From the IMG/VR virus record IMGVR_UViG_3300010882_000011, positions 64,001 through 128,000 of that record: a stretch of DNA of 64,000 nucleotides; one strand, written 5' to 3'. The notes below the pieces were generated by a model. That model was not told the DNA's origin. It ran no database searches and saw nothing but the letters and a program-made list of their open reading frames with translations. Both the position numbers and the translations under genes were made by a program. Origin of the DNA: a virus (taxonomy: Duplodnaviria; Heunggongvirae; Uroviricota; Caudoviricetes). Below, in pieces: positions 772-24,537 of this stretch. Within the stretch, counting starts at the first letter, position 1, and the number at the start of each line of letters is the position of its first letter.

Positions 772-2199
772 ATGAGAATAACAAACTTTACAACTGTAAG
801 ACCTAATATGAGCGAAACTCGCACATATGAGGATTTTATGAAATTTTTAGGGGCTAACCCTGCAAGACTTGGTATTGTATCTACTTTGTATGATCAATAC
901 ACAGCAACTCACTTAACTGAAGCTCTTTTGAATACTTATACATTGGAAAAAGGTAAGAAAAATGCTTTCCAAAGTATTGATTCATTCGTAGTTGAATGGG
1001 ACATTAATGTAAACCGTATCAAACGTGTACATTTCAAAGCTGTTCCTGAAGGCGATGGCGCTAACGGAAGTGATATTATATTTAGATTTGGAGAAAACTA
1101 CTACCAGAAATTTGACACTTTCATTATAGAAAGAACTCGTCAGTTGATTATCGTTCTAAATCGTCCACAACGTATTAGCGATAATGAATGGGTAGTAATT
1201 GGTAAAATCCAAGACAGCGATTACGGCTCTGTTCTTGATACGTCTGGCACACAAGTTGGTATGCCTACACGTTTCGTAACGAACTACATGCCTGAAATGC
1301 ACGAAGAAGGATACGTTAAGTATCAAAGTAACGTTGAACGTCACAGAACTTATATTGGAACACACAGAGCTGATGCTTCTATGTCTGCACAATACAATGC
1401 AATGGAAGACGTATTTATCCAAATTGGAAAAGGTGATAAAGACGATCCTATCTATAAACTAAACACTGCTGAGAAGGACTGTTTAGATTCATTTATGGAA
1501 GCTCGTAACAACGCTTGTTTGTGGGGTAAAACAAATATGGATCAATTCGGTAAACCGAAAATTTATGACCCTGAAACTGGCCGTCCAATTATTGCTCCTG
1601 ATGGAATTATAGCTCAGATCGAGCGTTTTGCTACTAAATTTGCTTTCAGCAGATTGAACACCAAATTCTTCCACAAAGCATTACAAGTAATGGTTACTAA
1701 ATCCACAAAAGCAACTGGAAACGATTATTTATTCCTTTGCAACACTGCTATGTGGACTGAAATTCAAGAAACACTTTCAACTTGGATTCGTGATTGGAAA
1801 ACTGTAGGTACATTCGTATTCTCTACAGCATCTAACGGATATGTTGATTTAGGTGCAACTTACAACTCCTATGAGTTTGCAGGTAATAAAGTTACTTTCA
1901 AAGTTGACCGTTCATTTGACATTGAATATCCAACTCGTAAATTCGGTATTTTCTTAGATTTAACAGCCGATGCTGTATCTGGAAAAGCTGCTTTGAATAT
2001 GTTTACCTTCAAGAGAGGTGAAATTATTCATAACTTTATCAAAGGTGTTGGTGGAAACACTGGTTTACAACACGGCGAAGTATCTTCTCCTGTTGCTGCA
2101 TCTAAGATAATCAACTGGGGTTATGCAGGTGTTGGGGTTTATAATCCTTATCGTTCTGTAATCCTAATTTCTGAAGAAACTAGAACTCTTTGGTTCTAA
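772..2199 (+). CDS. Major capsid protein (crAss-like, HK97 fold)
   Basis: 475-aa ORF with crAss MCP-like sequence (e.g. GYVKYQSNVERHRTYIGTHR, LWGKTNMDQFGK); position at the head of the virion module. Confidence 0.85.
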   Translation: MRITNFTTVRPNMSETRTYEDFMKFLGANPARLGIVSTLYDQYTATHLTEALLNTYTLEKGKKNAFQSIDSFVVEWDINVNRIKRVHFKAVPEGDGANGSDIIFRFGENYYQKFDTFIIERTRQLIIVLNRPQRISDNEWVVIGKIQDSDYGSVLDTSGTQVGMPTRFVTNYMPEMHEEGYVKYQSNVERHRTYIGTHRADASMSAQYNAMEDVFIQIGKGDKDDPIYKLNTAEKDCLDSFMEARNNACLWGKTNMDQFGKPKIYDPETGRPIIAPDGIIAQIERFATKFAFSRLNTKFFHKALQVMVTKSTKATGNDYLFLCNTAMWTEIQETLSTWIRDWKTVGTFVFSTASNGYVDLGATYNSYEFAGNKVTFKVDRSFDIEYPTRKFGIFLDLTADAVSGKAALNMFTFKRGEIIHNFIKGVGGNTGLQHGEVSSPVAASKIINWGYAGVGVYNPYRSVILISEETRTLWF

Positions 2200-2217
2200 G
2201 AGATAATATTGGTGATA

Positions 2218-2242
2218 GTGCTCCTGTCTATGATGGGAGCAC
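2218..2242 (+). terminator. Stem-loop after MCP (attenuator or mRNA-stabilising hairpin)
   Basis: GTGCTCCTGTC-TAT-GATGGGAGCAC, 11-bp stem with two G-U pairs; no immediately adjacent U-tract. Confidence 0.55.
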
Positions 2243-2292
2243 ATAAACCTTTTAGATAAAATCTTAACAAGATAATTTGAATAAGAAATAAT

Positions 2293-3213
2293 ATGGAAAA
2301 TAAAACTATAACAATACGTAGCGTCTATAAAGTAAAACAATATTACATTCAGCCGCTAAAACAAAAGAATGGGATGAATCATCCATTTGTAAAGAAAGTA
2401 AGAATTAATCCGAATGGAGAATCCGAGATGATTCTTAGTGAAAAGGAAATGAATGATCCAGAAAGTCAATATTTCATCCCAGAAGATATGGAAATATTTA
2501 TTGAAGATGGAACAACTTTTAACTTAGCTGATCCTTTGCAAAGAAATAAATGGTTGGCCATTCAGGATTCTGAATTAATTGTTCCAACACGTGGAGCAAA
2601 AGATGAACATGGTAATTTAATCATTGATGGAGATAAACGTAGATATGGATTAGCCGAACTTTACGTTGATGTTCCTGGAGAAGAATCAGAAAAGAGTGTT
2701 AATAAGAGAAAACTAATCACCAAAGCATGGACATATATTGAAAATGATTCTGCTGCTGGTAGATTAACAAAGGTGAAATTACTAGGTAAAGTAATGAGAA
2801 ATGCTCCAGAATCGGACATTGCGGATTACTTATATCAAAAAGCAGAAGCTAAACCTGAATTGGTAATTGATCTTTATACAAGTCCCGATAGTGTACTGAA
2901 ACTTTTACTTATTGACGCAAGAGAGAAAAACGTTATAAGAAAAATCAATCAGTTATTCATGTATGGAGACACTGTTCTCGGAGCAACTGATGAAGCAATG
3001 ATATTATTCTTGAAAACTCCTTCTAATAAGAGAGTTTTAGAAGCCATCAAAAACGAAACATATCCCGATTTTGTTCGTACTGTAAATTCCAATTTAGATG
3101 GACAACAAGACCCTAATGATGAAAATCCTGGTCTTGCACTTACAAACGAAGACCCTATTCCCGAAATAAGTGAAGTTGACAAACAACTTAACAAAGGGAA
3201 AAATAATAAATAA
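2293..3213 (+). CDS. Conserved crAss-like virion protein (p-crAssphage gene 75-like position)
   Basis: 306-aa ORF following MCP; synteny. Confidence 0.65.
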   Translation: MENKTITIRSVYKVKQYYIQPLKQKNGMNHPFVKKVRINPNGESEMILSEKEMNDPESQYFIPEDMEIFIEDGTTFNLADPLQRNKWLAIQDSELIVPTRGAKDEHGNLIIDGDKRRYGLAELYVDVPGEESEKSVNKRKLITKAWTYIENDSAAGRLTKVKLLGKVMRNAPESDIADYLYQKAEAKPELVIDLYTSPDSVLKLLLIDAREKNVIRKINQLFMYGDTVLGATDEAMILFLKTPSNKRVLEAIKNETYPDFVRTVNSNLDGQQDPNDENPGLALTNEDPIPEISEVDKQLNKGKNNK

Positions 3214-3233
3214 TAAATAACAAGTAGAAACCT

Positions 3234-4121
3234 ATGACAAGTCGCGAACTTTATGAATATGCTTTAATTGAAATTAATAAGTTAGAAGCGCCTTCATTAC
3301 TACTGGAAGATTATAACTATTTTATTAATAAGGCTGTTCAACAGTATATTAATAAAGTTTATAATCGATACGACATTAATCAACAGTCAACAGACGATTT
3401 ACGAGTATTAAAGTCCTCTTCAATTTTGGAATTGGAACTTGATGCTTCTGAAATTAGCATGATAAACCTTCTTAATAGAACGTATTCATGTTTTATGCCA
3501 GACGATTATCTTCACATTTTGAACTGTGTGGTTGAATATGAAGTATTATCACAAAACTTTAAATGTTACGATGTTGGAACTAGAGTTTATTTCCCCGCAA
3601 GGAGATTAACTGCCGATATGTATTCACTGATTATCAATAATGCTTATATGCGTCCAATGTATAAAAGACCATATTACTTTATTAATAATGTGAACCTTAC
3701 TGAATATCAAAATAGTAATCTAATTGCTGTACCACAGAAACCAATATTGCCGTCTAATCCAGAAATGGATCAGGAAATTATTGACTCTGATCAAATTGAC
3801 AGTATTAGACCAATCTTTGATAGAAAATCCAATAACTCCACAGTTAAACTAGAAATTAGATATGGACAAGATGATGCTTTATTTTTAGCAAGAAGAGCAT
3901 ATGTGGATTATATTAAATCTCCAATGTTCGTTCGTCTTACTCAATCTCAAATTGACAGAACAGTTGATACTTCACAGGTTTTAGAATTTCCAGATTATGT
4001 ATGTTTTGAAATAGTAAACGAATTCGTTAAACTATTGTTAGAAAACGCAAGTGATCCTAGAATCCAAACTAATCCAGTAGTAAATCAAACAATTGCAACG
4101 GGAATACCTGAGCAACAATAA
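3234..4121 (+). CDS. Conserved crAss-like neck/tail ring protein (gene 74-like)
   Basis: 295-aa ORF; N-terminus YALIEINKLEAPSLLLEDYNYFINKAV and DDLRVLK resemble the crAss ring-protein family; synteny. Confidence 0.65.
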   Translation: MTSRELYEYALIEINKLEAPSLLLEDYNYFINKAVQQYINKVYNRYDINQQSTDDLRVLKSSSILELELDASEISMINLLNRTYSCFMPDDYLHILNCVVEYEVLSQNFKCYDVGTRVYFPARRLTADMYSLIINNAYMRPMYKRPYYFINNVNLTEYQNSNLIAVPQKPILPSNPEMDQEIIDSDQIDSIRPIFDRKSNNSTVKLEIRYGQDDALFLARRAYVDYIKSPMFVRLTQSQIDRTVDTSQVLEFPDYVCFEIVNEFVKLLLENASDPRIQTNPVVNQTIATGIPEQQ

Positions 4122-4154
4122 AAGAAAATAGAAATTTAAAACAAGTAAGAAATT

Positions 4155-5333
4155 ATGTTTACCTATACAAAAGAAATTATCATCAACTCGATGTATGCTG
4201 ACCAAGATGCTTATGGTTCAGGTCAACAGTTGCCTAAAATACAATCTGTAATTACTCCTGCTCCGAATACAGCACCTGCTGGTGTACTTAGAATATTAAG
4301 AGCTGGTGAGTACAAACAAGAAAACATTCAAGGAGCTAGAATTTTCAAAACTCCTGGTGTTGTTGGACAAACTGCTACAATGTTAGTTCCAAATGCAGCT
4401 GGTTTAATGGCCACTGCTGGTATTTACAGAGTTTCCATTTATATTGGAATGGCTCATAAATACTTAGGAGACTTTGCTCACGCAAACTGGTATCCATTTG
4501 GTAAAGCATTAGTTGCTGACTTCTCTGTTGCAGACGGAATGAGTGCTGCTGAGAAAATGCAACAAATGACAAATGCAATCAACTTGACTATTCCTCGCAA
4601 TAACATTTTTGCAAGAACAGTTCTTAACGGAGTTGACCTTTCAGTTTATTTAACTGATCCTTATGCTTTCATCGCCAGAGCTACTTTGGAATGGTATGAT
4701 CCAAACGAATGTAATCTTTGCTCTGGATTCTACACAGAAATTCCAGAATTTGAAAACCTAGTTGAAATTACTAGAAATGTTGAGCCATTTGCAACTGCTG
4801 CATGGTTAGTAGAAAACTTGAGATTCCCAAGTTATCCGAATGTTCGTTATGCTGCTTTGTATGCTGATGAATATCCAATTGCTGGACAACTTTACACTAT
4901 GTATTCATTTGCATATGATGTTGAAAGAACTGGTTACTTCGGATTAAACGGAGTTAACGAGAAAATGGGTGCTGTAACAAGACACGTGTACTATGTACTT
5001 AATAGCGAAGTTGCTGCTTTTGAAGCACAAGTAACTGCTGCATTCCCAAATGTTGCTATTGTAGAAAATAATACTGTTATGATTACAACTGCTCCAACAG
5101 TTGCTAACGATGGTGTTGCTATTCAATTAGTAGCTACTACTTGGCCAATGGATTCTTCTGCAACTATCACTTGGGCTTCTGCGGATCTTCCAGCTGATGT
5201 TACTTTAACTTCTACTGGTATATTGACTGCTGATCCTGCCGCTGTAGTTGGAGCAACATTCACCGTAACTGCTACATCCAGCAATCCTGACTATAAAGAA
5301 GCATCTATATTGATGACTGTAATTGCAGGATAA
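4155..5333 (+). CDS. Auxiliary capsid/decoration protein with C-terminal Ig-like domain
   Basis: 392-aa ORF; C-terminal ~85 aa is Thr/Ala/Val-rich with Ig-like pattern (ATITWASAD...TGILTA...TFTVTATS). Confidence 0.6.
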   Translation: MFTYTKEIIINSMYADQDAYGSGQQLPKIQSVITPAPNTAPAGVLRILRAGEYKQENIQGARIFKTPGVVGQTATMLVPNAAGLMATAGIYRVSIYIGMAHKYLGDFAHANWYPFGKALVADFSVADGMSAAEKMQQMTNAINLTIPRNNIFARTVLNGVDLSVYLTDPYAFIARATLEWYDPNECNLCSGFYTEIPEFENLVEITRNVEPFATAAWLVENLRFPSYPNVRYAALYADEYPIAGQLYTMYSFAYDVERTGYFGLNGVNEKMGAVTRHVYYVLNSEVAAFEAQVTAAFPNVAIVENNTVMITTAPTVANDGVAIQLVATTWPMDSSATITWASADLPADVTLTSTGILTADPAAVVGATFTVTATSSNPDYKEASILMTVIAG

Positions 5334-16298: not shown

Positions 16299-17939
16299 AT
16301 GACACAAAATATGCTAGAAGCACTTGGTTTCGCTAACTCAATATATGGAAGTTTAGTTGACCAAAGTGCTATGAGAAAACAAGGTGTAGGTGGACTTGAG
16401 AATGTATTTCCAATTTTATCTAGACCAGAACAAAAAACTTACTGAAAGGAGAGTATGAAGGATAGTCCTTCAGCTCTTTCTTTTAGAAAGTTTAAGTTTG
16501 GATTGCTTTCAGAAATTGAAAAGGATAAAATAGCAACGGCGGCGTCTGCAGTTGCAACTGAAGGAACTCCTCCAGCAGAGGGACTTCCCACTGCTACTCA
16601 AAGAGTTTTGACAGCTCCTCCTTCTAATAAAGACTTTAGAGCGACTCTTAAAGCTGGGGAATCTAATACCACTCCTACTCTTAATCGGAGACAAACGAAT
16701 CTGCAAGGAAAACATAATGCCTTAGTTGATTTAAGTAATAAAACTGACGAGGAGGGCAATAAAAAATTCTTCAATGAAGGTAAAACTGTGAAACAAATAA
16801 AGCAAGAAGCAAAGTTTGCGGGTGCAAATCCGAGAGAGGCAGTAAAAACCTACAATGAAGAACAGATAGCACAAGGTAATTCCCCTGCAACTGGTACAGG
16901 TGGCTCAATAACGAACATGAGTCAAGGAATGCAAGGTGCATTAAGTGGTGCAGGATCTGCACTTGGTGGTTTATCAGCTGGAAACATGGATGAAGGAGAT
17001 TTAGCAGTACGAGAAGGAATTCGAGGAGCAATTGGAAAGATGGGTCCGTGAGGTGCAATTATTTCAGCTGCTTCTGGTGTTGTTGATGCTGTGGGAGATA
17101 TGACTGGTTTAAATCTTGATACTATTGATCCTAATTCTGCAAAACGTGCGGGAGTTGGGGGTGCTGCTACATTTAATAAAATGATGAATATGTTACCAGG
17201 TAATAGTATGATTTATGGCTCAATAGCTGCTCTTACAGGTGGTAAAACGGCTGAGGCTCAAATGTCTGAACAGACACAACAGCTTGGTGGTGCATTCGGA
17301 GGAACAGTTAACGATATTGCTGCCGCCCAAGATTTGGGAGGTAAATCAATGTTGTTTGGAAGAAAGAAAGCAAATGCCTTTATTAGGGACGCTAATGAAA
17401 AAAACAGGCAGTTGACATCTATGAAAGACGAGAATGATAGAAGATTACAAAACACCGCTGGTGCTGATTTAGCTAATCAAAACTTCAATCGCTATTTAGG
17501 AAACACTATGCAAAATACCATGCGTGTTGGAAAATCTGGAATGAAATTCCCCCACTTAGATGAAGTAAGGTTAATCATAAATAACTTTCAATCCGAAGTT
17601 GTTCAGAAATTTGCCGATGGGGGTAAAATGAATGTTATTGTCGAAGGAGCATTGCATTCTAGAAAAAACAACCTACAAGACTTAGAAGACTTAGAAGATG
17701 TAACCAAAAAGGGAATACCTGTAATTACTTACGAAGAGGGTGGTGAAGTTGTGCAAGTTGCAGAAGTGGAAGATGGAGAACTTGTCTTAATAAAGGAAAT
17801 TACAGATAAGCTAGAGGTTTTATATGAGGATGGATCAGAAGAAGCGATGATTGAAGCTGGTAAAATATTAGCTGAAGAACTTATGACTAATACAGATGAC
17901 AGAACTGATAAATTATTAACTGATGAAGATAAGGATTAA
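16299..17939 (+). CDS. Putative cargo/ejection protein, 546 aa, Gly/Ala-rich (TGA=Trp x2)
   Basis: ATG 16299 in frame with 16455 and 17091; Gly/Ala-rich hydrophobic segments; KFADGG motif. Confidence 0.65.
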
Positions 17940-18498
17940 CGGAAAGGATTATGATGTTATAGTACTCAAAACTAATGAAGAAAAAATGAAAGGTCTTCAA
18001 GATGTTGAGGAAATGGAGGATAATGAGGGAGCGTTGTTTATTTATGATGAACCACAGGAACTGAATTATTGAATGAAAGATACAACTATTCCTTTAGATA
18101 TTATTTTTATTAGTCCTGAATGGGTTGTTAATTCTGTGCATCAAGGAGAGCCTCTATCAGAGGAACTTATATCTGATCCAGACTCACAGTACTGTTTGGA
18201 GTTAAATCAGAACTCGGGAGTACAACCTGGCATGGAAGTAGAGATTGATGAAGTGGATGATGATTTTTTTGAAATGGAATCTGAAGGGATGCATATCATC
18301 GGATCTGATGGAGAAAGTCAAATGGAAATAGAAGCGGGTGAAAGAATATTCAGTCGTCCTAATACTAAAACTCTAGTTAATATGGCTAGGCGTGCATACA
18401 TGTCGAAAAAGGATTCTGACTATAAGAGATTGGGCAAAAAACTCTTTGAATACCTTAAAACACAAGATAATCGAAAACCAGAGTATGTTGAAGAATAA
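17923..18498 (+). CDS. DUF192-like domain protein with crAss cargo-type C-terminal domain, 191 aa
   Basis: Readthrough of TGA 18070 restores the DUF192-type motif GALFIY...YWMKDTTIPLDIIFI...YCLELN. Confidence 0.7.
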
Positions 18499-18508
18499 TG
18501 TTCTATAC

Positions 18509-18540
18509 TTTGGATTTTACAAAAAATAATAGTAAATTTG
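18509..18540 (+). promoter_or_regulatory. Bacteroidota sigma-A-type promoter (-33 TTTG, -7 TAnnTTTG)
   Basis: TTTG at 18509-18512, 20-nt spacer, TAAATTTG at 18533-18540, in an intergenic gap. Confidence 0.7.
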
Positions 18541-18575
18541 AGATTGTTAAAAACCCAAAATTAAATTTTAAATAA

Positions 18576-18824
18576 ATGAGGAGAAAAACACTAGAAGAAT
18601 TCATCACAGATGCAAAAGAAGTTCATGGTGAAAAATATGATTATACGATGACGAAATATAGGAATAACAAAGATCATGTTATAATCATTTGCCCAATTCA
18701 TGGAATATTTACTAGAACGCCTAACAAACACCTAATTGGTTGAGGTTGTCCTGAATGTAAAAGTGATACGTTAATGAAGAGACAATTAAGCAAACAAAAT
18801 CTACAACAAAGTTATGAAAATTAA
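18576..18824 (+). CDS. Stand-alone Zn-binding domain protein (DUF723/homing-endonuclease-associated type), 82 aa, one TGA
   Basis: MRRKTLEEFITDAKEVHGEKYDY...IICPIHGIFTRTPNKHLIG-W(TGA 18741)-GCPEC; absent from the ORF track. Confidence 0.75.
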
Positions 18825-19176
18825 GAAATTTCAAATGGGTGGTGAGATGCCAGCTCCTGAAGGACAACCAATGCCACCACAAGGAGGCCCAGAACAAGGC
18901 GGGGATCCATTAATGCAAATTGCACAAGTGGCAGCAGAAGCGCTACAAACACAAAATTGTGAAGCAGCTATGGCTGTATGTGAAGCATTCATGATGTTAA
19001 TGGAACAAGCACAAGGTGGACAACCAGAAGTGGGTGCACCAGTTGAAGAACCCGTTTTCAAAAAAGGTGGAAAAATGAAAAAACCCATCAAAAAAGAAGG
19101 CGGCGGAACTGTTAAAAAAGGTAAGGACTTAAATCTTAAAGTTGAACTTACTAAATCTAAAGATAAGAAATACTAA
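18814..19176 (+). CDS. Small Gln/Gly/Pro/Met-rich crAss-like protein (putative cargo)
   Basis: 120-aa ORF with KKFQMGG and FKKGGK motifs. Confidence 0.7.
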   Translation: MKIKKFQMGGEMPAPEGQPMPPQGGPEQGGDPLMQIAQVAAEALQTQNCEAAMAVCEAFMMLMEQAQGGQPEVGAPVEEPVFKKGGKMKKPIKKEGGGTVKKGKDLNLKVELTKSKDKKY

Positions 19177-19198
19177 TATTCCCTTATAGTAACAACAC

Positions 19199-19236
19199 AA
19201 AATGAGAGATTGGAGACTATCTGGTCTCTCATTTTT
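19199..19236 (+). terminator. Intrinsic terminator-like hairpin
   Basis: AAAATGAGAGA...TCTCTCATTTT 11-bp stem extended by wobble pairs, ending in a T run. Confidence 0.7.
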
Positions 19237-19260
19237 GGTTTAACCACAAATAACATAATT

Positions 19261-22200
19261 ATGAGTCAAGTTAATAAAGATATTTTAAAGTTCGATGGTG
19301 GAGGCCCAACCTCAGTGGTTGCGCCTAAAACTTATGGAACATTTACAAGAGTAGGTGGTAAAACAGAAACTGTGGATGATAATTGGTTATCGCAATATAG
19401 CCAGTTTACTAATACTCTAAATGATAGCGAGCGTTTGCATTTGTCAAACGTTCGTAATGCTCTATTGCGTGGTGAGAATGTTACTTACGATCCAGATACA
19501 AATAGAGTATGGTCGGATGCCAAAGGGGATCTTACAGGTACTATAAGAAATCCTAGAGAAAAAGCTCGTTCTGCAGGAAGTATAAATAAAGCAGGCAGAT
19601 TTCTTGAAAGGTTGGGTATTAGAACAGAACGCAATGAATATGCGGGCGCAATGCAAAGGTTACGAGACTTTACTGTAAGTACACCAGAGCCAGAAGCGCC
19701 TAAATTAACGGAGTTGAGTTTTGGCAGGCGTGATGCTGATTACAATTTAGTCAATCCCGCAGATAAGAAAAATACTACACGTCAATATTCAAAAAGTATC
19801 GGTAATCAAACAATAGTTGATCTATTAAGAAATTACAATACTTATGCAACCGCCAAAGATGAACAAGGAAATTGAGTAGGTGATAAACAATATAAAGTAT
19901 CGGGTTTAGGAGATAATGACAAAACTATTCGTGATTTAATTGCTGGTCAACCAGATTATATTGAAAATTTAATTAACCAAATGCAGCAGCACACTTACAA
20001 AGAAGGTGATGTAGCAGAGGAAAATGAATTATGGGATAACTTAAGAGCATTTAACATATATAGGCCTGGTACTACACCACCTGTAATCACAGGTGGGGGA
20101 GCAGGTACAACACCTGCTGTTAAGGGAGCAACTGTAACTAATGCGGCAGGAAAACAAATTACAGCACCGTGAATAAAAGACTTTGCAGGTCTTAGTTTTG
20201 GAGGTAATCCTTTAGTAAGTTTAGTAGAAGGGACTCCAACATGAAGTTATACTGGAGGGCCTTTAATATTCAATGAATATAGTGGTTTGTCAAGAAACAA
20301 TCCTTATTACGGTGGTATGGTTTATGATGGTCGCTTTTACACTAAAGCCGAGCTTAATGACCCAAATGATCCTTATAATCTAAGAATTGCCCTTTCTCCA
20401 ATGTCCGCTGCTTTCAAAAGAGGGACATATGATGATCCTGCATTGGCAGGATATTACTGAGGAAATAGTCCATGAAAAACTTATGGAGATACTGATTATC
20501 TAGATTGGTTTCATAATAGACTATCTAAAAGTAAAAATTATCAGTATTTTAATTTAGGTGGGGATAGATTCGCAGTTGGTACTATTACTGGCAATCCTAC
20601 GTATCATCCTGTTACTGGGGCACCTAGTATGCAGTGAACTTCTTATACACCTGGAAGTACTTTGTCAAGTTGAAATAAGGAAGATTATACTAGTGCAGAG
20701 GATCTTTTATCTAAAAATACAATACAGCAGGGGCCTGAGAGAATTGGCACAGTGGAAAACATTGGAGGCCAGAAGTATGGTTCAATATATACATTCAGTC
20801 AAGGTGCAAATGATCCTACATATACCATCTTCAAAAAAGTAGGAGATAATCAAACATTATACGTTAAAGACAGCGCTGGCAGAATACAAAGAATTACTAA
20901 TCTAGACTGGCTTACCACATTAATGCAGCGTAAATCTACGGATAAGATTGATACAGCGGATATTAAGAAATTATATAGTACACCTTTAACTAATGCACAA
21001 AACGAAGAGGAGTTAATAAAACAAGGTTATAAAAAATCCACATTTCTTGGAGATACAGTCTGAATAAAAGATGGTAAAAAATATTCTATGACTGCCAGAG
21101 GTATAGTACCTTATAAAGACGGTGGAGTATTAGGACAATTGTCTTTGATACTTGAAGAGCCTGTTCGTAAATATCAAATGGGAGGAATGGCTCCTACGGA
21201 GAGAAAACTTGCTGGAACACAGGTAGATTATTTACGTGATGTAACTAAAACGTATAGTGCTGAAGATAAAGAAAAGGCTAATGTATCTGGTGCAATGGCG
21301 AATTTAACTGAAGCTGATAAGTTACAGTTAGGGTCACTTTTAGCAGATACTGGTGCAATGGGTTTATCTGTTGCAACAGGAAATAATCCCATAACTGGAT
21401 TTGTATCAGCTGGCATGGGATTAACTGGAACAGGCTTACAATTTGTAGCCGATGTTAAACGTGATGGTTTAGATTGAGGTGATGTTGGTAGAGCTGCATT
21501 TGGGTTAGGTTTTGATATTGCAGGATTAGTTCCAATATTTGGATCTGCTGCAAAGGTCGGCAAATTTGCAAAAGGTTTAAAAACTGCTAAAAAGACTGTT
21601 CAGTTAGCTCTTGGGGGACTGGGTGTTTCTAGTGCTGCAAGAGTAGCCTGGGATAAATGAGAGAGAAAAGATAGAGGAGAGAATGTAAACATGTCCCTTG
21701 ATGACTATAGAGCAATTGCACAAGGTCTTATGGGTGTGATGTCTTTAGGTAGAGCCGCTGACAGTAAATTAGCGAGAACAAAAAAACAAGCAGACGTTTC
21801 TTTAACATCGAAACAAGCCGATGATAGTGGCTTAACTATTAATATTAAACCACAGGATGCTGCATCTATTAACTCGTTGAAAGGGGCTGATAAAACAGCC
21901 AAACTTGAATCTGTTATTAAGAAGGAAGTACTTGCTTCTAGTGATCCAAGAGCAAAGCGTATCCAAGACTTAGCCCAAGATCCAAATGTTAATCAGCAAC
22001 AACTATGAAAGGATGTTCGTGAAAATGACTTTGGATTAATTGAATCTAATAAATGGTTCAATAGAAAAGGTAAAGGGATGAATGTTAAAGACTTTGACAT
22101 CAAAAACAATAATGAACTTCGAGACGTTAAAGACTATCAGAAATGATGGCAAGTGATACGCAGAAGAGCTATTCAAAGGGAAAGTGCTTGGGAAAAAGGA

Positions 22201-24537
22201 TGGAATCCATCAGGTCCTGTACAACAACAGTTTACACGTGGAAATACAACCCTCAATACAACAGGTATGAGACAAGTTGTAGATACCAGAACAGGACAAA
22301 TACGTTATTACAAAGGAAATGAAGAAGTTAATCCGATGACCCTTCTTCGTCAACAGTGATGGAATAAAGTTCCAGGAAGTGGATTTGACAAAAGTAGTGG
22401 AGGTAAAAGTTCAGACATAGGCAACTTTAACAGAGGTGGATTTAGACCAGAAACAGGGACCCAAGGTGGAACACGTGCTCCAAGAAATGCTGCCCAAACT
22501 GAAGGTTTCAGAAATGAAAGAGGCGATATTGTTTCTGGAGGTAGTACTGAAATACAAGGACAATTGGCTTTACCACTCCCTCAATATGCATACAGAGCAC
22601 CTGGTTTTCAGGGTGAAAAGTCTGTTCGTACTGGTAGAAAACATGGTTACGGTTCAACTAATAGGAAAGATCGTGAAAGAGGACCAAACAAGAATTTAAA
22701 GAATACATGGCAACGACAGTTGGATGAAATGTTAAGTACTTTAAGTGGAGAAGTGTCTCCAATCTTTAGAGCACCTCAAGCACAGCCTCTTTATGTGAAC
22801 AGGCCACCAGAGTCAGTACCTGTATTAAACCCTCCAACTAAATTCTTAGATTGGATGAGACTAACAAATGCAATGAAAACTGCCACACCTACTACTGGAG
22901 TACAAACACAGAATTATAGTATTCCTACAAATACAAGGTTTTTTGATCAGTTCTTTAGTCGTTGGAAACCGCAGTTTAGTCAAGGACAACAACGTGGCGT
23001 AACTCGAAGAAAAGAAGGTGGAAAAATTTTAAAATTTTTGGACGGAAATACTACAAGTCTGCTTGTAGATCCATATGCTGGATTAACACGTTATAATACA
23101 GACCAAAGGGGAGATATTCAAGCATTTCCTTTTGGAAATAACCCAACATCAAATTCAATTGGATGGAAATTTCTGCCAAATGAAAATGCGTTTGTAATGA
23201 CGGAGAAAAATCGGGCCTGGAAAGCCCCTTCAACTCCAGTTTCTGCAACTAATCCAACTACTACAATTGTACAACCAACCAATGACTTAAGAACAGAAGA
23301 AGCTTCAAAAGAAAGACAAGCTACTCTTGAGGCCTACCAATCAGATTGGATAAAGAAGAATACAACTCCATTGGTTTCTAATACACTTTTACCAATGAAT
23401 AACTCTATTTCCGATGCATTAGCTGCTATGCCTGCTACGACACGTAAAGACATTAAAAAGGAATTAGGTGTAAAAAACTTAAAACAGTATAATGCTCGTT
23501 TAGTGGAAAATGATTTGGATCCTATAACTAAAATGGAGTGGAAAAATATGGGGAAAGATACTGAAGGTACAGGTGGAGAAAATAACAAACGTTTTAATTT
23601 ATCAGGTCTTGTGGATGCTGAAGACATGTTGCACGTTGGTCGTTTAATTGCCTCTGTTCGTAAGAACAACAAAATGGCAGGTGTAATGAATGAAGCTATT
23701 AACAAAGCAACTAATGCAGCAATGCCTCAGTATGTTTCTGAAATTTATAACTCTTATTATGGTTCTCCTGAAGCTAGAGGATTACGATTACAAGCTGATG
23801 CTGTACAATCAAATCCAGTGATTCACTCCGACCCTTTTCTAGCAAATGCCTTTGCGCAGTCAAACCAACAACAACGTAATGCATTACTAAATCAAGCTGT
23901 AGCTGCAGAAGCAGGGGCATGACAGAATACTATGTTGCAGAATACTGATCTTGCTAGAAATTATGCTGGATTTAGAAATCAAACTGCGAATGCACGTGGA
24001 CAACTTACTGCGAGTGCTATAATGCAAAAAGCAACTAATAAAAATGCTGCTATATATGGCAACTGGCAATCGGGAGAAAATGCAGCTCTACAATATGCAA
24101 ACAGACTTGCAGGTGACAGAGAAATACGTGATAACGTTAACGCTCAAATATTGTCAAATAAAGCCCAAATGGATTTTAATAAGTCTATAGCTAATGCTGT
24201 TCAACCTTATAAATCGGAATTTAAAAGTTGGCAGGATAATAATCCTACTCTAGTGGCAACTTATCCAACCATTGAAGATTATGTTCAAGCATATCATCCT
24301 GAAAAATGAGCTGTAATTCAACAAAATGCAATGGGATCTGGTTATTCAAGTTATCTTAAACAAATAGGGAATAGTAGAATTCGTACTCCATTTTATAAAT
24401 TTCAATATGCTAAGAAGGGTGCTAAACTTTTAAATGCAACTGATCACATTTGAATTGACAGTAATAGAGCTACTAAAAAAGCTATAAGCAAATTAAATGA
24501 TCATATAATTGATTTATTTAAAAGAACTTTACGATAA
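19261..24537 (+). CDS. Large cargo/ejection protein, 1758 aa, with hydrophobic Gly/Ala helices (many TGA=Trp)
   Basis: Eight track fragments share one frame and the gaps contain only TGA; ends TAA overlapping the next ATG. Confidence 0.75.

Follow-up and report, generated by a model that had tools for sequence, protein, structure and literature searches.

Block-wise recoding of TGA from stop to tryptophan in late genes has been described in Zeta crAss-like and other gut phages (PMC7886860; PMC12386605; bioRxiv 10.1101/2021.08.26.457843), and the general idea that recoding serves as a timer of late genes is already published (bioRxiv 10.1101/2021.08.26.457843). [quoted passage not shown] Near-identical Zeta crAss-like genomes differ mainly in their homing-endonuclease genes (PMC12386605), and zinc-finger arrays of the CapR, DUF4379, or DUF723 type, joined to an EDxHD/Vsr-like (or T5orf172) nuclease, make up a large class of homing endonucleases (PMC12350094; PMC10448857). 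CapR from the Vibrio cholerae PLE satellites is described, in the account of Netter et al. 2021 relayed by PMC10448857, as a domesticated endonuclease with DNA-binding activity that acts as a repressor of phage capsid genes.

The phage studied here is represented by a virus record of 170,238 bp with a G+C content of 34.5%, and the window analyzed is the 64,000-nucleotide stretch spanning bases 64001 to 128000 of that record. On the + strand, a block of recoded genes extends over genome positions 28450 to 112677; translated with table 4, it holds long genes of up to 3111 aa, which table 11 breaks only at TGA. In-frame TGA codons are concentrated in this block (185 TGA versus 169 TGG), where 36 of the 45 genes carry at least one, and the early-type blocks are almost free of them. 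In the DUF192 gene, the TGA aligns with the tryptophan of the FWMK(D/N)T motif of homologs. With TGA read as tryptophan in the virion block, a tRNA with the anticodon UCA encoded, and TGA-poor early-type blocks, the genome shows the same pattern as the Zeta crAss-like phages (PMC12386605; bioRxiv 10.1101/2021.08.26.457843). The UCA tRNA, at 94 nt, has an unusual length for a Trp-type suppressor. We also observed four successive virion-block genes (475, 306, 295, and 392 aa; window positions 772 to 5333) that contain 15 TGG and no TGA, and their neighbors differ in this respect. The features of the locus are as follows; positions are those of the window unless marked as genome positions.

17923–18498, + strand: DUF192 gene, 191 aa, with one TGA read as Trp (Pfam PF02643, E 1.4e-18); left border of the spacer
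18509–18540, + strand: promoter motif of the Bacteroidota sigma-A type, TTTG-N20-TAAATTTG, read directly
18576–18824, + strand: 82-aa ORF with one DUF723/CapR-like treble-clef zinc-finger module (ATG at 18576, TAA at 18822–18824)
18741–18743, + strand: in-frame TGA, codon 56 of the 82-aa ORF, read as Trp in the late block, directly before G57-C58-P59-E60-C61
18814–19176, + strand: gene for p120, 120 aa, with no Trp codon of either kind (ATG at 18814)
19199–19240, + strand: intrinsic terminator, a 16-bp hairpin (19199–19235) followed by a U run
19261–24537, + strand: next gene, encoding a 1758-aa virion-block protein with 16 TGA codons and a K-F-x-x-G-G type motif at its N-terminus
Genome 25379, 28384, 35337, 35378 (− strand), 63600, 131074 (− strand), and 160813 (− strand): other exact TTTG-N19–21-TAnnTTTG motifs, 27–58 nt upstream of genes or directly upstream of tRNA-Ile
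Genome 162826–162919 (outside the window): tRNA with anticodon UCA, 94 nt, called tRNA-SeC by ARAGORN

The promoter motif, p120, and the terminator

The Bacteroidota consensus promoter consists of TTTG at −33 and TAnnTTTG at −7, separated by 19–21 nt. The motif downstream of the DUF192 gene, a predicted promoter, matches this consensus exactly, as an earlier note on this DNA had stated: TTTG occupies 18509–18512, the spacer is 20 nt, and TAAATTTG lies at 18533–18540, so the spacing is correct. The start codon of the 82-aa ORF follows 35 nt downstream, and transcription would be expected to start near 18547. Across the genome there are 13 exact matches, compared with 5.9 ± 2.4 in shuffled sequences; seven of them stand within 100 nt 5′ of a gene start on the correct strand (0.08 expected), and an eighth stands directly 5′ of a tRNA gene. 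This is beyond chance, and the motif is a real, enriched promoter class of this genome. The other exact motifs precede genes on both strands and include a divergent pair (genome 35290–35415) and one where the TGA-rich block begins. [quoted passage not shown]

The gene for p120 follows, its start overlapped by the end of the 82-aa ORF by 11 nt, and the overlap with a tryptophan-free gene reported earlier is confirmed. The p120 protein has a KFQxGG motif near its N-terminus and a basic tail, with a low-complexity linker and a helical core (DPLMQIAQ...C...C) in between. It belongs to no Pfam or PHROG family, no structure or annotation was found for it, and its neighbors in the Atlas are viral hypothetical proteins. 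Ten neighboring virion-block proteins likewise gave no match to PHROG at E 1e-5. The terminator downstream of p120, also proposed in the earlier note, is well supported by folding: its free energy is −19.4 kcal/mol (z = −4.2), and none of 200 shuffled sequences folds as well.

The N-terminal motif of p120 recurs in its surroundings. K-(F/Y)-x-x-G-G sites are found in the window at 18826–18843 (KFQMGG, the p120 N-terminus), 19288–19305 (KFDGGG, the N-terminus of the 1758-aa protein), 21169–21186 (KYQMGG, inside the 1758-aa protein), and 17607–17624 (KFADGG, in an upstream 546-aa protein), and the whole genome has nine matches versus 3.7 ± 1.8 in shuffles. In relatives with a readable start, a KFxxGG-type motif is kept at the N-terminus of p120, and in several it is also kept at the start of the next gene. 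The motif might serve in protease cleavage or in targeting proteins to the virion. Together, p120 and its KFQxGG motif form a conserved feature of the virion block that is worth study.

The DUF192–p120 spacer in related phages

Scans with p120 yielded 22 related loci (six from IMG/VR and 16 from metagenomes), each with a p120 homolog, and in all 20 whose contig extends far enough the DUF192 gene lies upstream of p120. The spacer between the two genes is 47–105 nt in most relatives versus 315 nt in the phage studied, and the extra length is the 82-aa ORF. Exact or one-mismatch promoter motifs occur in relatives at the place that matches the 18509 promoter: among the 13 relatives scanned for the motif, nine have it before p120, with its end 15–61 nt before the start codon. 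L016 and L006 have an exact copy, and L002, L004, L010, L007, L022, and L025 have one that departs from the motif at a single position. In L005 and L024, the motifs found stand 5′ of inserted genes, and in L003 and L019 no motif was found before p120. A GC-rich hairpin directly 3′ of the p120 stop codon was present in all 13 homologs whose downstream flank was read, with a clear T run in most. The promoter, p120, and the terminator are therefore conserved as a frame that does not need the zinc-finger ORF. The earlier proposal that promoter, ORF, p120, and terminator constitute a self-contained mini-operon consequently does not hold, and when conservation was examined in relatives the promoter recurred, but the ORF with its TGA was seen in the phage studied only.

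Within the phage studied, direct reading of the sequence revealed no second −7 motif between 18576 and 18814, which makes the promoter at 18509 the most likely source of p120 transcripts. Alternatively, since the DUF192 gene has no terminator behind it, transcription from upstream may read through into p120. The promoter at 18509 may be either the ancestral p120 promoter or an import that arrived with an endonuclease cassette: its TTTGGATTT start resembles the promoters of L002 and L004, both of which are free of endonuclease genes, and the cassette in L024 has a promoter of its own.

The ORF is absent from 21 of the 22 related loci, and the exception, L024, has a full-length gene in the spacer. 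This gene encodes 310 aa with three modules of the same kind and a C-terminal nuclease domain; it matches PHROG 559 (E 8.7e-58) and PHROG 9084 (E 2e-16), which are annotated as HNH or homing endonucleases, and it has its own exact TTTG-N20-TATATTTG promoter motif and its own terminator. The corresponding site in L022 is empty, with 10 nt (L022:2174–2183) versus 995 nt in L024 (L024:1250–2244), and the flanks of the two loci are collinear on both sides with 69–72% nucleotide identity. Presence or absence at a fixed intergenic site is a feature of homing-endonuclease genes, and it is found at the DUF192–p120 spacer. L024 and L022 thereby make a clean pair, with and without a cassette of promoter and ORF between the DUF192 gene and a terminator. 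A different insertion was seen in L005 (3220–3992), where two unrelated extra genes (139 and 107 aa) occupy the spacer behind an exact promoter motif at 3640. The spacer is therefore an insertion hot spot that takes varied inserts.

No other DUF723 module was found elsewhere in the genome studied or in three related records searched whole (two complete and one approximately 63% complete). The IMG/VR scan found no relative of the 82-aa ORF, a search for proteins of similar length returned only the ORF itself, and a phage collection gave no useful DNA match. The identity of the module to the L024 repeats is 35–47%, versus up to 59% to unrelated members of the family; since it is no closer to the former than to the latter, the insertions in the two phages may be independent.

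From these observations, we consider it probable (roughly 70%) that the 82-aa ORF, lying within the conserved p120 unit, is the relic of a homing-endonuclease gene reduced to one module, and that its TGA is an ordinary recoded codon. The stretch would then be the conserved transcription unit of p120 in a Zeta-like crAss phage, in which a host promoter of the sigma-A type stands before the gene and a strong intrinsic terminator after it. In the phage studied, a free-standing gene with a CapR/DUF723-like array and an EDxHD/Vsr-like nuclease would have invaded the DUF192–p120 spacer, and a later deletion would have taken the nuclease and the remaining fingers, leaving one intact module. The reading frame of the relic runs on into p120 and ends at the first stop met there. 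The 11-nt overlap needs no design on this account, because the last codons of the relic are simply p120 sequence read in another frame up to that stop. The relic and p120 are probably cotranscribed from 18509, and the relic would serve no dedicated role. An endonuclease remnant had been named in the earlier note as a fallback, and it is this option that the relatives favor, since the one related locus with such a sequence in the spacer has a full-length endonuclease gene. The comparison suggests that the ORF is debris of a selfish gene in a conserved and probably highly expressed transcription unit, and that the DUF192–p120 locus is a clean homing-endonuclease hot spot of Zeta-like crAss phages, in which an unoccupied site can be set beside a complete gene and a relic of one module.

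The zinc-finger module and its family

The 82-aa ORF consists of a module at residues 2–64 and an 18-aa tail that runs into p120. It matches Pfam DUF723 (PF05265) over profile positions 4–59 of 60 (E 3.6e-6, 27.3 bits against a cut-off of 20.9) and also matches the endonuclease-annotated PHROGs 681, 559, and 4605 (E 4e-14 to 1e-11). The four predicted zinc ligands (C-x2-H ... C-x2-C) are present as C39, H42, C58, and C61, and nine further near-invariant residues (F9, H17, Y21, Y23, Y28, I37, G43, F45, and H52) are also kept. The AlphaFold2 model has a pLDDT of 94, with a hairpin at residues 35–47 and a helix from residue 59; no significant match to solved structures was found by sequence or by fold (best Foldseek E-value, 0.77).

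An exhaustive HMMER search gathered 26,409 cluster representatives, of which the best-scoring 150 carry 5–14 repeats each, one repeat corresponding to query residues 2–64. In the longer members of the family, the repeats form arrays with a nuclease-type domain at the end. Together with the Pfam and PHROG matches and published descriptions (PMC10448857; PMC12350094), this bears out the earlier statement that the zinc module normally occurs in arrays on homing-type endonucleases. A specific origin of the module as the N-terminal first repeat of an array was also considered and rejected, because the best-matching repeat is the first in approximately 21 of the 150 top hits, which is the chance level.

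Compared with free-standing homing-endonuclease genes (PMC12350094; PMC10448857), the 82-aa ORF shares the family of approximately 60 aa, the C-x2-H...C-x2-C ligands, and the conserved H, Y-D-Y, G-F, and H-L-x-G elements. It is likewise intergenic in a phage late block, has its own promoter, and lies at a site with a presence/absence polymorphism among relatives. The difference is that one module is left and the nuclease domain is gone: active homing-endonuclease genes carry arrays, whereas the ORF has a single module and ends 18 residues past it, and the following 363 nt are the conserved p120 gene. Lacking a nuclease domain and having only one module, the ORF cannot be an active homing endonuclease.

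The module itself shows no sign of decay. It contains no frameshift, TAA, or TAG, and none of the 13 near-invariant residues has been lost. Its score against a repeat profile is 94.9 bits, at the 92nd percentile of 1232 repeats, although this profile was built from hits to the same query and is biased toward it. An intact module is compatible with a recent truncation as well as with selection for function, and a single genome does not separate the two. The intactness therefore bears on the reading that the lone module has been co-opted as a small protein that binds specific DNA sequences, is produced late, once the suppressor tRNA has appeared, and blocks cutting by related endonucleases in coinfection or acts as a CapR-like repressor. 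Beyond the intact and high-scoring module and its confident structural model, this reading could draw on the normal distance (35 nt) of the ORF from a strong promoter motif, with an A-rich leader, and on the existence of stand-alone single-module ORFs such as P0191 (70 aa), which recurs without a single difference on six contigs with phage-like surroundings. CapR, as a domesticated endonuclease reported to act as a repressor (PMC10448857), provides a precedent for a non-homing role, and in both cases the zinc-finger module is related and of homing-endonuclease origin. However, the CapR Pfam model matches the 82-aa ORF only weakly (E 0.15, below the cut-off), CapR is described in that source as retaining a T5orf172 domain, and the regulatory role belongs to CapR. 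Moreover, the ORF was seen in one phage genome only; short DUF723 proteins are few and do not make up a conserved family, most being singletons from short contigs; the C-terminal tail is partly out-of-frame p120 sequence and looks accidental; and one finger may give little DNA specificity, the best-scoring relatives having arrays of 5–14 fingers. We consequently regard co-option as unlikely. A narrower version, in which the intact module is a selected, domesticated remnant, restricted to late production by the host promoter together with the TGA, that shields the DUF192–p120 hot spot from the homing endonucleases of coinfecting phages or tunes the p120 promoter, seems less likely still. A functional relic would represent endonuclease domestication in a minimal form.

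The in-frame TGA at codon 56

The TGA at codon 56 is, as the earlier note had observed, the only one in the ORF and stands just before the final CPEC. The frame gives 82 aa with TGA read as tryptophan, whereas translation with table 11 ends after 55 aa. It is also correct that the zinc site is complete only when the TGA is read through, the last two ligands following it, and that without readthrough the ribosome would stop 70 nt before the p120 start. From this geometry, the earlier note had proposed that the unit could sense the code switch. On this model, the TGA would gate both the zinc site and, by translational coupling across the 11-nt overlap of stop and start, p120, so that p120 expression reports that TGA is being read as tryptophan. 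The geometry is real, and the published notion of recoding as a late-gene timer (bioRxiv 10.1101/2021.08.26.457843) is in keeping with such a device.

The statistics and the relatives do not favor it. At the codon usage of the block, one or more TGA codons would occur in 82 codons with a probability of 0.43, and 120 codons would lack tryptophan with a probability of 0.21; the TGA of the ORF, in presence as in position, and the tryptophan-free p120 are not beyond chance. All p120 homologs lack tryptophan, whatever the genetic code of their phage, and the arrangement occurs in none of the relatives, where p120 has its own short leader. The start codon of p120 falls in a stretch that is rich in A and largely unpaired, and the local fold is no better than that of shuffles (z = −0.99), so that nothing suggests a need for upstream translation. 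In addition, most genes of the block are "gated" by TGA in the same trivial sense. The code-switch sensor thus fails on chance expectation, on the homologs, and on the absence of a start-hiding fold, and we give it hardly any credence. A perfect 9-bp complementarity does exist between GGTTGTCCT and AGGACAACC, which pairs 18744–18752, the codons right after the TGA, with 18861–18869 in early p120; as a structure that hides the start it was rejected, because the overall fold is not better than shuffles, and it is probably due to chance.

Position 56 is the most variable of the module, with 19 residue types in the family (Ser 18%, Gln 12%, Arg 9%). Tryptophan is found there in four of 1212 family repeats, and the TGA does not align with a tryptophan of homologs. 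By comparison with the family, tryptophan at this position is tolerated and not ancestral, and the TGA probably arose by a point change from a Ser, Arg, Gly, or Cys codon. The rarity of tryptophan at this position is what could be cited for the case in which the TGA is a disabling mutation, the ORF a pseudogene with an inert 55-aa product, if one is made at all, and the region only a long leader of p120. This would be a subcase of the relic explanation. The tolerance of position 56 for 19 residue types speaks against it, as does the fact that dozens of essential genes of the block read TGA as tryptophan, so readthrough would occur here too once the tRNA is present; we consider a disabling TGA very improbable.

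Under the favored reading as an endonuclease relic, the TGA would be an ordinary Trp codon of the late block, acquired most simply when a single base changed at the position where the module varies most. The ORF has the features of a late gene recoded from TGA to tryptophan, namely, an in-frame TGA, a cognate suppressor tRNA in the genome, and a location in the recoded block; it does not differ from the block-wise recoding around it, and its codon usage is that of its block. For annotation, this suggests that a regulatory role need not be assumed for a small TGA-bearing zinc-finger ORF of a recoded phage.

The only contig in Logan that encodes the 82-aa ORF (SRR10512950) is 100% identical over 6.2 kb. 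With this identity, it represents the same phage and offers no comparison, but the TGA is also present in it and is therefore not an assembly error. Some of the p120 homologs contain a different recoded stop: in L002, L007, L010, L015, and L019, an in-frame TAG is found in p120 or in the motif of the next gene (KF-TAG-xGG), at positions where others have Gln. Sister lineages therefore appear to use TAG as Gln, whereas the phage studied here uses TGA as Trp.
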